Source of the DNA: an uncultured Bifidobacteriaceae bacterium
Lineage (GTDB): Bacteria > Verrucomicrobiota > Verrucomicrobiia > Limisphaerales > JADLHS01
Assembly (NCBI GenBank): GCA_964574525.1
Contig: CAZNOE010000002.1
Location: 1 to 53,269 of the forward strand
Direction of reading: 5' to 3'
DNA length: 53,269 nucleotides
The position numbers and the translations under genes are program-made. Shown one piece after another: positions 44,740 through 48,196 of the stretch. A model generated the notes under the pieces. It was not told the origin of the DNA. It saw only the letters and a list, made by a program, of their open reading frames with translations, and searched no databases. Positions within the stretch are counted from its first letter, which is position 1, and the number at the start of each line of letters is the position of its first letter.

Positions 44740-46737
44740 TTAGCGGCGAATCACGACGAGCCAATCCTGCGCCGCGTCGGCGGGCGGTGGGCCCAACACC
44801 ACCTTGCCGCCGGCCTTGACGGACTTCGGAGAAGCGTCCGCCAGCGGACCACCGGAGCGCGGGTTGAACCACTGGACCGTGAAGCTGCCGCTGGCGCCGG
44901 ACATATCCAACTCGGTGGTGCCGCCGTTGGGCAAATACACCAGGTAAAGCTCACCCTCCTTGGCGAGACAGTACTTCGAGTTGTCGTCCTTCGCGTTCCC
45001 GATGAGCGCGTCGGCGCTTTTCATCTCCCAAAACGGAATCTTGTTGGCCGGGAAGAACTCCAGCGCGACGCGGGCGTAATTCCAGTTCTTGTCGCGGCTG
45101 CGCCAGTCTTCGCAGACGAGGTCGTTCTCGGGCAGTTGATAGCCGAAGTAGTATTCCACGCCCGCGCCACCCGCCATGAGATTGCCCCAAAGGGTGGCCT
45201 TGCGAATGTCATCCAGCGTGTAGCCGCGTGTCTCGGCCGACGAAGGCTCCTGCTTCTTGCCATCCTTCTTGGCATTGCCTTCCGGAGTTGGGCGGGCTCG
45301 TGCAACGCCGTCGAAACCTTGGTAACCGGGATCAGGCGGCACACCAAGGCTGGCCGGGCCTTGTTCGTCGTTGGCCACGACCCAGGCCTTGCCGGCGTCG
45401 TCAGAGGCCGTCACCCACTTAAGCGTGCGCTGGTGAACCTGTTGCCATCCATTTTGCAGTGACGCTCCGGTGAGCTGCGACTTGTCGCCCAGCAACGGCG
45501 TATAGACCTTGTCCTGCTGGGGCGGGAACGTGTGGATCACGACGTGGTGTTGATACGGATCGTTCGCGCGGATGTAGTTGATCATGTCGTTGACCTCTTC
45601 CGTGCTTTGCGTGTTCTCCTCGCCGATGTTCCAGTTCAACGCCAACTCGTGCGCGTAACGGGCAATCAACTCGCGGCAGTAGAGCTTGCGCTGCGGACCG
45701 AGCTTGCCGCCGTCGAGCGACTCGGGCACGAGGCCAGGTTCAGCCTTGTCGCCACGGCGGTCGTCGTCAATTTCCTGCTCCTGCAACTTGAAGTGGAGGT
45801 AAAGCCCCTTGGCTGTCGCGTGGTCGAACACCACGCCCCATTGATCCAGCTTCGAGCAATCCCAATGCAGCTTGTCGTTGCGACTGACGAACGGCCACAC
45901 GTTGTTGCCGTCTCCCCCGGCGTTGTAAGTTAGGAAGCTGAACGCATTCACGCCCTTGCCCGCGAGATAATTCAGCGCGCCGATCAGTCCCTTGCCCTTG
46001 CCGCCCTTCCACGTCGGGTCGCCCGCGCGCCAGTCCTGCACATGGGCTGCCCACGTCTTGAGCGGCACGTTCTTCTTGAGGGCGATGGTGTTGTCAAAGT
46101 CGGCATACGCCAGCAACGTCTCCGGTGCGTCCGCCCCCGCCTTGAGGAAATACTCCTTCGTGCCGGCAAACTGGAGATGATGTTTGCCGACGTATTGCAG
46201 CAACCCCTTGCCGCGAAAATCACGCCCGGTCTTGTCGGTCTTCGCGATCTTGAAGCTGCCACTCACGCCGTGGAACGGCTTCACCGCCGCGCCCCCGCCA
46301 TCGAGCGCCGCGTGTTTGCCGCGCGTGAACGACACGGAATACTTCCACGTGCCCGCCTTGTCCGGCGCGAGGTGCGCGCGCCATTTCGTGCCGGACTCGG
46401 CAGAGGTGTTGGCGGCATCGCCGTCGGCGGCGAAGTAGCCCGGCACTTTGTAACTCGGCGACCCCGACTCGTGCGTGAACGTCACCGTCAGATTGCAGTC
46501 CGTGAAGGGATTCGGATCGTTGTCCAGTTCGTGCGCATACGGCCCGTCGAGCGTCAGCGTGACCTTGTACCACTCCTTCAACTCACCGGAGATTTCCACC
46601 GCACCCTTGCCGTCAGCCTTGCGCGGCAACACGAGGCCTGGCGAGGCAATGGGCACGGAGGCGTCGGCCGCTTGCGCGGAAAATCCCGTTGCCAACAACA
46701 CAACGGCCAGCAGGTTTGTGAGTGTGATTCGTTTCAT
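44740..46737 (-). CDS. DUF5060-domain protein with GH5-like domain, secreted (tandem paralog)
   Basis: ORF trimmed to ATG 46737 (MKRITLTNLLAVVLLATGFSAQA signal). Collinear with 42836..44704 (ISGELKEWYKVTLTLDGP..., LALNWNIGEE). Carries an extra charged segment ARARPTPEGNAKKDGKKQEPSSAETRG. Confidence 0.65.
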   Translation of the reverse strand: MKRITLTNLLAVVLLATGFSAQAADASVPIASPGLVLPRKADGKGAVEISGELKEWYKVTLTLDGPYAHELDNDPNPFTDCNLTVTFTHESGSPSYKVPGYFAADGDAANTSAESGTKWRAHLAPDKAGTWKYSVSFTRGKHAALDGGGAAVKPFHGVSGSFKIAKTDKTGRDFRGKGLLQYVGKHHLQFAGTKEYFLKAGADAPETLLAYADFDNTIALKKNVPLKTWAAHVQDWRAGDPTWKGGKGKGLIGALNYLAGKGVNAFSFLTYNAGGDGNNVWPFVSRNDKLHWDCSKLDQWGVVFDHATAKGLYLHFKLQEQEIDDDRRGDKAEPGLVPESLDGGKLGPQRKLYCRELIARYAHELALNWNIGEENTQSTEEVNDMINYIRANDPYQHHVVIHTFPPQQDKVYTPLLGDKSQLTGASLQNGWQQVHQRTLKWVTASDDAGKAWVVANDEQGPASLGVPPDPGYQGFDGVARARPTPEGNAKKDGKKQEPSSAETRGYTLDDIRKATLWGNLMAGGAGVEYYFGYQLPENDLVCEDWRSRDKNWNYARVALEFFPANKIPFWEMKSADALIGNAKDDNSKYCLAKEGELYLVYLPNGGTTELDMSGASGSFTVQWFNPRSGGPLADASPKSVKAGGKVVLGPPPADAAQDWLVVIRR

Positions 46738-46741
46738 AAGA

Positions 46742-48196
46742 TCAAGGATTGAATTTGTTGACCGCCTCGGCGAGCGCGTGCGGCCCGCCGACGTTTCCGG
46801 GAAACACCACATACGGCAGCCCAGGAAATTTTGTCTCCGCGCCGAGTTCCCACACGGGAATCCCCGGCAAAATCTGGCCGAGCACCATCGCGCGCTTCAC
46901 ACCCAAGCCGCGCGTTGCTAGATCGCTGGAAGTGATACCGCCCTTCGCGATGAGGTAACGTGGCTTGGCCTCGATACCGCGCAGCAATTCCATCAGCGCT
47001 TCGGAAACCTGATTGCCAATCGCGAGGCTCGCCTCCGCGCCGTTGCCGGTGACGAGCGTGCGGCTGGTGAACACCACCACGTCGCGCCCGGCGCGGATTC
47101 CGGCGTTGGCCTGCTCAACAGCACGGCGCAAAACCGTCGTGCGCTGGGTCGCGTCCAAAATGTTTTTCACGCAAATCTCCACGCGCTCCACGTCACTCTT
47201 CGCCAGCAACGACTCCAGTTGCGCCGTCGTCTTCGGCACATACGAGCCGACGATGGTCAAACCGCCCCTCACCCCGTCCCTCTCCCCATCGGATGGGGAG
47301 AGGGTGGCCGCAGGCCGGGTGAGGGGTTTCCACAACGCTCTCGGCGCAAGCCCCAGCCGCGCGGCCACAAAACTTGCCGCCGTGCGATACATCAGGCGGC
47401 TGCTCGCGTTCTCCGCCTGCAACGCCGCCCACGCCAGCACTTCCAAATCGCGCGGCGCGGCGGCGTTTGCGATGCAAACCTCGCCATCGCGCAACGACAG
47501 CAGTTTCGCTTTCACTGCGTCCGGTCCGGCGACGCGCAAATCGTCGAGCGAAATGCTTTTCACTTCCACCGCCTTCACCCCGCCGCCGGTCTTTTCCTCC
47601 ACCCACGCGCGCAGATTCGAGTTGCGATAGCCAAACGCAGCGTCCCGGGCAAACGGCGTCTCCGCTGCCGGAACGAGTTCTTCGCCCTCGGCGACGTAGT
47701 GAACATCATTCACCGTGTAGCGCCCGCCCGCTTCGAAATACGGCACGAGCAACACCGGCGGCGTCTGCGTCCCGCCGCCCACAAGCGTCCGGCCCAGCGC
47801 ATCCGTCTCCGCCGGAAAATGCCCGCGCAACGTCGAATCGCTGCGGCTCACGACGACAAAATCATTTCGCCCCGGCGACCGCATCGCCGCCACGGTCAGG
47901 TTGCGCGCGATCTCCTGATTGATCCGCACCGCCTCCGCCGCCGGAAACGCGCGCGTGTTCGTCAGCAGATAAAAGCACGGCAAGTCATTTGCGAATTCGC
48001 GCGCGAGTTCCTCCGGCTTCCAAGTCGTCAACACCGGCACGCCATACACCGTCTGTGTGCCGGTGGGATCGTCATCCAGCACCACGACCTTGCGACGCGA
48101 CTTCGCCACGCCTTCCCGGATACGCGGCAACAAATCTTCCGCCCACGGCGCGGGCAGCGTCGCGAACAACGCGGATTTGTTGATCGGTGAAATCAT
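46742..48196 (-). CDS. Four-carbon acid-sugar kinase family protein (DUF1537; OtnK/DtnK/LtnK-type)
   Basis: N-terminal VVVLDDDPTGTQTV and C-terminal LIAKGGITSSD are the signatures I associate with this family. 484 aa including a palindrome-encoded insert (see repeat 47265-47326). Confidence 0.8.
   Translation of the reverse strand: MISPINKSALFATLPAPWAEDLLPRIREGVAKSRRKVVVLDDDPTGTQTVYGVPVLTTWKPEELAREFANDLPCFYLLTNTRAFPAAEAVRINQEIARNLTVAAMRSPGRNDFVVVSRSDSTLRGHFPAETDALGRTLVGGGTQTPPVLLVPYFEAGGRYTVNDVHYVAEGEELVPAAETPFARDAAFGYRNSNLRAWVEEKTGGGVKAVEVKSISLDDLRVAGPDAVKAKLLSLRDGEVCIANAAAPRDLEVLAWAALQAENASSRLMYRTAASFVAARLGLAPRALWKPLTRPAATLSPSDGERDGVRGGLTIVGSYVPKTTAQLESLLAKSDVERVEICVKNILDATQRTTVLRRAVEQANAGIRAGRDVVVFTSRTLVTGNGAEASLAIGNQVSEALMELLRGIEAKPRYLIAKGGITSSDLATRGLGVKRAMVLGQILPGIPVWELGAETKFPGLPYVVFPGNVGGPHALAEAVNKFNP
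47265..47326. repeat. 62-bp nested palindromic (REP/MITE-like) element lying in frame inside the kinase CDS
   Basis: Outer 10-bp stem cccctcaccc (47265-74) / gggtgagggg (47317-26). Inner perfect 12-bp stem ccctctccccat (47278-89) / atggggagaggg (47293-304) with a 3-nt loop. It encodes ...LTRPAATLSPSDGERDGVRG... in the gene frame. Confidence 0.7.

Follow-up and report, generated by a model that had tools for sequence, protein, structure and literature searches.

Introduction

Dispersed palindromic repeats that colonize coding sequences are best known from Rickettsia, where many copies of the Rickettsia palindromic elements (RPEs) lie in frame within unrelated functional genes, housekeeping genes among them (PMC10969869, PMC3733652). 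A second case comes from Opitutus terrae, whose GTAG-type repetitive extragenic palindromes (REPs) can stand wholly within open reading frames (ORFs), including those of DNA repair genes, helicases and tRNA synthetases, and contribute about 20-30 amino acids (Di Nocera et al., 2013, PMC3733652). The CGTC REPs, a group that includes RPE-4/6, have 8-9 bp stems starting with A/T, loops of 4-5 nt and a CCA tail, and no dedicated transposase is known for them (PMC3733652). Here, we describe a 62-nt nested palindrome that sits in frame in the gene of a DUF1537 kinase, on a stretch of 53,269 nt (the window; positions 1 to 53,269 of contig CAZNOE010000002.1, assembly GCA_964574525.1) from an uncultured bacterium of the order Limisphaerales (Verrucomicrobiota).

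We propose that this element is, in all likelihood, one copy of a dispersed, non-autonomous and structured palindromic repeat that is tolerated in coding sequence in the manner of an RPE. The phenomenon as such is already known, from RPEs and from the intragenic REPs of Opitutus terrae and other bacteria; a literature search returned no description of this particular repeat family, which is a new member. It brings in-frame palindrome colonization at scale to free-living Verrucomicrobiota with large genomes, where it reaches essential genes such as those of methionyl-tRNA synthetase (MetRS) and dihydrofolate reductase (DHFR).

A nested palindrome in the hinge of a DUF1537 kinase

A first-pass annotation made from the letters of the window had described a 62-bp palindrome at 47265-47326, with a 12-bp stem and 3-nt loop nested inside a 10-bp outer stem. 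Both arm pairs are indeed perfect (Table 1), and a 4-bp hairpin (hairpin 2) is found in addition. The element reads CCCCTCACCC CGT CCCTCTCCCCATC G GATGGGGAGAGGG T GGCC GCA GGCC GGGTGAGGGG; in a repeat search the outer arms come out as 10 nt and 100% complementary, and the inner arms as 13 nt (47278-47290 and 47292-47304), also 100% complementary and 1 nt apart. Folded as single-stranded DNA, the 62-mer reaches -28.1 kcal/mol, compared with -13.95 +/- 2.2 kcal/mol for shuffled sequences (z -6.4; 0 of 200 shuffles match it), and either strand gives about -28 kcal/mol. With a third hairpin present at 47306-47316, a single strand would fold as a three-way junction. No second copy with up to three mismatches occurs in the window, as the annotation had stated, and none would be expected by chance. 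An Rfam scan of 47000-47600 with E values up to 10 returned noise, with a best score of 17.5 bits where the gathering score is 90.

Four of the six frames through the element are stop-free, while frame 2 has a TGA in both orientations, and the open frames encode a peptide of about 21 amino acids rich in Pro, Ser, Gly, Asp, Glu and Arg. The sole credible ORF over the element is the kinase gene, on the minus strand. In its frame the element contains no stop, just as had been read before, and gives PLTRPAATLSPSDGERDGVRG, followed by GLTIVGSYVPKTT; the peptide string for the junction and the element interior is ...PAATLSPSDGER. The 62 nt and one flanking base that completes the last codon together make up 21 codons (291-311).

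The host protein has the two-domain architecture, SBD_N followed by NBD_C, and the fold of the DUF1537 family. Because SBD_N ends at residue 279 and NBD_C starts at residue 313, the insert lies in the inter-domain linker, where the annotation had placed it. An AlphaFold2 model built with 41 homologues has a mean predicted local distance difference test score (pLDDT) of 90 and a predicted template-modeling score of 0.88, and it matches the solved DUF1537 structures 5DMH, 4XGJ, 1YZY and 3DQQ with E values of 1e-17 to 2e-19 and a probability of 1.00 (Foldseek); these structures came from the fold search, a sequence search of the PDB with the kinase having given no match. The pLDDT falls below 50 at residues 295-306 only, and residues 281-312 are coil with no secondary structure. 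On account of this low pLDDT and the coil, the insert is predicted to be a disordered hinge loop between two well-folded domains, in line with the surface loop that the annotation had raised as a possibility.

Table 1. Features of the kinase gene and of the palindromic element in the window
Feature	Position	Strand	Basis or remark
DUF1537 / four-carbon acid sugar kinase family protein, 484 aa, intact	46742..48196	-	ORF, Pfam, fold matches, synteny
SBD_N, N-terminal sugar-binding domain, residues 38-279	47360..48085	-	Pfam, E 2.1e-52
NBD_C, C-terminal nucleotide-binding domain, residues 313-475	46772..47260	-	Pfam, E 3.9e-40
Codons 291-311 PLTRPAATLSPSDGERDGVRG, element-encoded inter-domain loop	47264..47326	-	Translation; alignment; low pLDDT
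Nested palindromic repeat element, 62 nt	47265..47326	.	Reverse orientation relative to the family consensus, read along the gene
Outer left arm, terminal inverted repeat CCCCTCACCC	47265..47274	.	Paired in 97% of alignment cells, 35 copies
Hairpin 1, CCCTCTCCCCAT-CGG-ATGGGGAGAGGG	47278..47304	.	12-bp stem, 3-nt loop; 98.8% of alignment cells paired, 35 copies
Hairpin 2, GGCC-GCA-GGCC, 4-bp mini-hairpin	47306..47316	.	Single-stranded DNA fold
Outer right arm, terminal inverted repeat GGGTGAGGGG	47317..47326	.	Repeat search; pairing among copies

The element belongs to a dispersed repeat family

The source genome, from a soil/freshwater member of the Verrucomicrobiota, is a fragmented metagenome-assembled genome (MAG) of 7.3 Mb in 1278 contigs, 82% complete and with 3.3% contamination. 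Searched with the 62-mer (blastn-short), it yields 35 full-length copies, 85-100% identical and in both orientations, with sharp ends (CCCCTCACCC...GGGTGAGGGG) and unrelated flanks; another 71 partial or variant loci bring the total to about 106. Copies are both intergenic and genic, and the intergenic ones are as well conserved as those in genes. The repeat character suspected in the first-pass annotation is thereby borne out, and neither of the findings that it had named as contrary, a segment unique in the genome or the same segment without palindromic DNA in homologues from unrelated taxa, was encountered.

Structure is conserved along with sequence. Across the 35 copies, 97.8% of the stem positions (cells of the alignment) are paired, and substitutions are compensated: the loop-proximal pair of hairpin 1 changes from A-T to C-G, G-C or T-A, and in hairpin 2 a G-C pair changes to T-A. 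Among 107 copies listed from relatives, the variable second pair of hairpin 2 is G-C in 48, T-A in 29, C-G in 9, A-T in 3, G-T in 11 and something else in 7, so that it is Watson-Crick in 89 of 107 and all four Watson-Crick pairs occur. We also observed a longer form of 125-177 nt, in which the terminal repeat and hairpin 1 stand at each end, inverted, around a variable core (on G000 contigs C197:1034-1180, C761:1606-1752, C184:7161-7307, C89:13174-13338 and others); on C197 it is in frame within a 604-aa ORF.

The right half of the element, taken as a 32-mer, is present in 29 of 41 relatives, among which are 22 of the 24 that belong to the same family. Copy numbers range from 1 to about 97, the highest being in a G018-like lineage; a control with the reversed pattern gave 0 in every relative. 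An exact-pattern scan covered 185,579 species genomes, and among the matches listed the titles are overwhelmingly Verrucomicrobia or Verrucomicrobiota, including "subdivision 3" and "Limisphaerales". In a phylum-wide sample, the element or recognizable pieces of it occur in 15 of 301 genomes only. As far as these sequence matches go, the family extends across Verrucomicrobiota of the subdivision-3 / Limisphaerales type. Some element-bearing public MAGs with a Verrucomicrobia-like MetRS are titled "uncultured Bifidobacterium sp.", "Akkermansia" or "Candidatus Acidoferrum sp.", labels that look wrong (loci L059/L067 and related, GCA_964594985.1, CAZQNQ01...; L099, L062 and L066).

Many copies lie in frame inside genes

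We counted a copy as genic when an open frame ran through it, extending 50 codons or more to either side, and both flanks had a positive coding score, computed with a codon-usage log-odds model trained on the long ORFs of the genome itself; Pfam checks of these calls covered the 21 full-length genic copies only. By this test, 21 of the 35 full copies (60%) and 40 of the 106 loci are in frame inside genes, and the genes are confirmed as real by Pfam domains to the left and right of the insert or running across it. In MetRS the insert lies between the catalytic and the anticodon-binding domain, and in DHFR two Pfam-matched stretches surround it. Further hosts identified by Pfam include a pyrimidine-nucleoside phosphorylase, DUF58 and DUF1015 proteins, a BlaR1-type M56 peptidase, two Ser/Thr kinases, a GT4 glycosyltransferase, RlaP, an alpha/beta hydrolase and an RHS protein; in LigD the copy is a 40-nt variant, and an Lhr helicase has at least two copies of the element. 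This Lhr-type helicase (1565 aa, C187:4156-8850, L047) has its two in-frame copies at residues ~653-667 and 1023-1044, between annotated domains, and a third copy lies just beyond the ORF at C187:8900.

None of the remaining 14 full copies, which are intergenic or at gene or contig ends, is a clear frame-breaking insertion. Of the two peptides, ...LSPSDGER... is read in 17 of the 21 genic copies (throughout in 15) and ...PLPIGWGEG... in 4, although the element is evenly oriented with respect to the gene (10 versus 11); six of the 21 are length variants of 63 or 60 nt. The same test applied to an independent sample of 62 copies from other genomes finds 15 genic (24%), 12 of these 15 in the SPSDGER frame, and because of this lower figure the 60% share may be inflated, by assembly bias or by the inclusion of older, diverged copies. 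With 21 of 35 full copies in frame and none frame-breaking, the data support a REP/MITE-like repeat (MITE, miniature inverted-repeat transposable element) tolerated inside coding sequence, which is how the annotation had read the kinase copy.

One kinase linker, several palindromes

We searched for kinase orthologues in a protein set of 5.8 billion sequences. The nearest proteins have identities of 72-87% and are encoded on contigs that keep the gene order GFO_IDH_MocA - glyoxalase - kinase - DUF5060. Most orthologues have no insert at all: distant ones and many close ones, including members labeled Anaerolineae and Thermoguttaceae, show LW.P, then 7-10 variable residues, then GGLTIVGS. In the window kinase, 19 residues separate the same two motifs, all encoded by the element, so the alignment bears out the indel that the annotation had predicted at this point. 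The whole variable linker is taken up by the element, with 21 codons instead of 9-12.

Two close orthologues carry the element at identical nucleotide junctions, TGGAAR/CCCCTCACC...GGGTGAGGGG/CGG. In P0002 (kinase 87% identical) the element interior is opposite to that of the window copy and hairpin 1 has a 12-nt deletion; in P0013 (82% identical) the element, also in opposite orientation, has kept its 62 nt, has lost the palindrome through substitutions and is 82% identical to the flipped window copy. Element identity is thus 0.82 for P0013 and 48/50 for P0002, compared with about 0.71 at synonymous sites. Other orthologues have a different palindromic insert at this linker: one with the peptide AADVSPLHSESGEVRADSRRLLQ in P0003, P0005, P0006, P0008, P0010 and P0011, one with SAADQPQH...LRLAEDGTAAL in P0004 and P0014, and one with RSADLRSGANLTPDINAPGQRPA in P0012 (read at loci L023 for P0005, L024 for P0004 and L027 for P0012). 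Relatives of these three families are found elsewhere in the source genome at 5, 1 and 26 loci, respectively. The linker of a 58% identical orthologue from the same genus (G001) holds yet another nested palindrome (L002, 2018-2085), with perfect 10-nt arms GGAGCGGCGG/CCGCCGCTCC 48 nt apart around an inner 8-bp hairpin and a sequence unrelated to the window element.

In a kinase tree built with the linker masked, the close orthologues form an unresolved polytomy, which does not separate one insertion followed by inversion from two insertions. P0011 and P0012 are well-supported sisters despite their different inserts, and linker content therefore changes faster than the gene.

Persistence and turnover in MetRS and DHFR

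MetRS homologues have a modal length of 518 aa. At least 10 of them, with identities of 76-91%, have PLTRPSATLSPSDGERDGVRG, always at one site and in one orientation, with the peptide string ...TLSPSGGER. Compared at the DNA level with the closest alleles that lack the insert, those that have it show an excess of exactly 21 codons; the exact insertion breakpoints are not readable, the closest empty alleles being too diverged at the flanking codons. When the insert is masked, the MetRS tree shows filled alleles in at least six clades, with empty alleles in between; such a distribution takes repeated gain at a single site, repeated clean loss, or the exchange of patches between lineages by recombination. 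The pattern recurs in DHFR, with a 63-nt variant (PSPGLAATLSPSDGER[AD]GVRG) in about 25 homologues. Inserts of both genes persist over homologues that are 71-91% identical.

Some of these inserts have themselves received further repeats. A second copy of the same family is nested in the DHFR insert of P0266, and members of other families in those of P0268 and P0272; in the MetRS of P0122, a second repeat stands within the first in-frame element. Such nesting suggests that existing copies may be preferred or permissive landing sites.

The MetRS element is identical at 55 of 62 positions (0.89) between lineages whose synonymous-site identity is 0.51, near saturation, and in a sister pair sharing a derived hairpin-2 variant the values are 0.89 and 0.72. 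As element identity exceeds synonymous identity in both MetRS and the kinase, in-gene copies appear to evolve more slowly than neutral sites. This may reflect constraint, conversion from other copies or re-insertion, three causes that the data do not separate.

Transposase genes in the genome

The consensus of the 35 copies contains neither GTAG nor CTAC. The intervals between inverted copy pairs hold LigD and a gene for a beta-lactamase-like serine hydrolase. Three intact Y1_Tnp genes are present in the genome (C212:4566-4910, C815:1239-1571 and C195:4075-4419; L049-L051), and no copy of the element lies on their three contigs in this 82% complete assembly. The repeats flanking the Y1 genes read TTAACACCC.ACTTCAGT.GGGTG with AAACCGTTTNAACGGTTT, plus a CCTACGG-type palindrome; on C815, a run of about 100 N (bases withheld or unassembled) directly after the Y1 gene (~1600-1700) leaves the right flank unreadable. 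These genes, which resemble IS200 transposases and REP-associated tyrosine transposases (RAYTs), probably form with their own hairpins a separate REP/RAYT system. Y1 genes occur in 39 of the 41 relatives, element-free ones included, and are near-universal in the order. Their number and the element copy number give a Spearman rho of 0.32, uncorrected and uninformative, and the sole adjacency of a Y1 gene and an element, in the relative G018, is at chance level. We considered mobilization by a RAYT, as for REPs, and rejected it: there is no GTAG, the Y1 genes are flanked by other repeats, and they are also present where the element is absent.

Relation to described repeat families

Several features place the element in an RPE-like class: it is dispersed and multi-copy, a substantial share of its copies is in frame in genes, and it occupies loop or linker sites, as judged from the kinase model and the MetRS domains. 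Like RPEs, it has in-frame copies in unrelated genes, with a conserved peptide that is seemingly compatible with the host fold. There are differences, too. RPEs, about 150 bp long in the case of RPE-1, belong to the reduced genomes of obligate intracellular Alphaproteobacteria, whereas our element has 62 nt (~125-177 in the longer form), is GC-rich, ends in inverted repeats of 10 bp, folds as a three-way junction and resides in free-living Verrucomicrobiota with genomes of 4-9 Mb. The comparison with RPEs offered in the annotation is apt as an analogy only and implies no sequence relationship.

With the REPs of Opitutus terrae the element shares the phylum and the habit of placing short palindromes inside ORFs of known proteins. 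Those REPs, however, have a terminal GTAG, belong to a RAYT-associated superfamily and are often dimers, whereas the element has no GTAG or CTAC, is mostly a singleton and does not lie beside the Y1 genes of its genome. Three hallmarks of REP/RAYT systems are thus absent: GTAG, a RAYT gene flanked by the repeat, and a mainly extragenic location (60% genic here, 24% elsewhere). As for the CGTC REPs, the motif CGTC (nt 11-14) does immediately precede hairpin 1 in the majority of copies, though it is variable; the stem, however, is 12 bp and GC-rich, the loop has 3 nt, the tail is TGG and the hairpin is nested in a 10-bp stem, so the element falls outside that group.

With MITEs such as Correia/NEMIS, ERIC, Nezha and the QMITE of Coxiella the element shares its small size, its many copies, inverted repeats at the ends, stable folding and, now and then, an in-frame fusion to a host ORF. 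Perfect 10-bp terminal inverted repeats, a length of 62 nt, at least 35 copies and the absence of coding capacity of its own all fit a MITE. Unlike MITEs, the element shows no target-site duplication, and its genic share of 24%-60% is far above that of usual MITEs. The intervals between inverted copy pairs yielded no parent insertion sequence that shares its ends; fragmented MAGs often lack insertion sequences.

Origin and maintenance of the in-gene copies

The account that we favor, a non-autonomous palindromic repeat tolerated in coding sequence, can be set out as follows. The element has a MITE/REP-like design, with 10-bp terminal inverted repeats enclosing two hairpins, and would arrive by transposition-like insertion. 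Purifying selection would eliminate the copies that break genes and leave those in frame in loops and hinges: since the open frames are free of stops and yield a hydrophilic, disordered peptide, in-frame copies in loops or linkers survive selection. Such copies would be translated as a disordered, functionally near-neutral surface loop. The kinase hinge would be one permissive site, where the element replaces a short variable hinge and the kinase remains intact. A flipped interior at the same junctions would most simply reflect inversion in situ or conversion via the 10-bp terminal repeats, with an independent insertion at the same site as the alternative for the kinase copy.

A number of observations weigh against this account. 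The flanks of the 35 copies share no direct repeat of 1 nt or more that could be a target-site duplication, and they show neither a conserved target nor extended terminal pairing. No autonomous element or transposase was found between inverted copy pairs, in a kind of assembly, the fragmented MAG, that often misses insertion sequences. Other palindromes surround the Y1 transposase genes, whose number is no useful guide to that of the copies. A length of 62 nt is not a multiple of three, and this account does not explain the retention of frame (62+1); in the kinase, moreover, the element replaces the ancestral linker instead of simply adding to it. The gene census rests on our own codon-usage model of a fragmented MAG, 82% complete, and we infer the translation of the element. 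Finally, pure neutrality does not predict in-gene copies more conserved than synonymous sites (0.89 versus 0.51 in MetRS).

A bolder version, which we regard as possible though doubtful, is that the repeat is a selfish element adapted to coding sequence: its three-way-junction fold would be actively kept in genes, by selection on the nucleic acid or by concerted evolution, and it would repeatedly enter, flip within and leave the same codons of essential genes. The patchy MetRS tree points this way, since all filled alleles sampled agree in the aligned position and the orientation of the element and, in the DNA comparison, differ from empty ones by exactly 21 codons, as does the kinase copy with an inverted interior at identical junctions. 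If this were true, there would be an enzyme-run mechanism of site-precise insertion and excision or of homing, and at least four palindromic families would have landed again and again in the domain linkers of this lineage.

The slow evolution of in-gene copies also invites the thought that they are selected for a function of their own, either as an mRNA or DNA hairpin at a domain boundary (a translational pause that helps the domains to fold one at a time, or a signal for regulation or recombination) or as a flexible hinge peptide. Besides the MetRS identities (0.89 against 0.51 at synonymous sites, and 0.89 against 0.72 in the sister pair), such a role would fit the 97.8% pairing of stem positions, the compensatory changes with all four Watson-Crick pairs at one hairpin-2 position, the persistence of the DHFR and MetRS inserts among homologues 71-91% identical, and the variety of palindromes in the kinase linker, which in orthologues is filled by at least four or five different families. 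We nevertheless think it unlikely: P0013 has lost the palindrome and P0002 12 nt of hairpin 1 while both genes are intact, most orthologues do without an insert, the host genes are functionally unrelated, and the intergenic copies are equally conserved, which recent spread or gene conversion would explain as well.

Still less probable is removal of the element from the DNA or the transcript before translation, as an intervening sequence, so that the protein would keep its short ancestral linker. The very stable fold could be a processing substrate, and that is the sole point in favor; removal would, however, lift the coding constraint, yet 0 of 35 full copies are frame-breaking, genic copies keep to the open frames and strongly favor one peptide, variants of 63 or 60 nt account for six of the 21, the length difference between MetRS alleles is exactly 21 codons, and even the decayed copy of P0013 is in frame. 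That the insert is an artefact of assembly or binning, with a repeat misjoined into the gene, might be suspected from the poor assembly (1278 contigs, 82% complete, 3.3% contamination) and from repeats at several contig ends, but we give it hardly any credence, given that independent metagenome assemblies (JGI, ENA) have the element at the same codon of the syntenic orthologue and that the reading frame is unbroken over both junctions. A lineage-specific linker that is palindromic by accident, unrelated to any repeat family, is just as implausible and is refuted by the copy count: the element is multi-copy, with sharp common boundaries and unrelated flanks.

Implications

For annotation, the element matters as a source of recurrent spurious small ORFs of the "SPSDGER/GWGEG" type; it also inflates length variation among orthologues and breaks MAG assemblies. 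For the study of protein evolution, its copies offer a natural map of the sites that tolerate about 21 disordered residues, and one DUF1537 kinase hinge has been struck by several unrelated repeat families. That sequence and structure are conserved across an order, yet come with no target-site duplication, GTAG or RAYT partner, points to a mobilization route still to be found.

The gene downstream of the kinase

The longest ORF of the downstream DUF5060-like gene (44740-46812, minus strand) overlaps the 3' end of the kinase gene by 71 nt. The real start of this gene is probably farther downstream; the listed N-terminus (MWCFPETSAGRTRSPRR...) resembles non-coding read-through.

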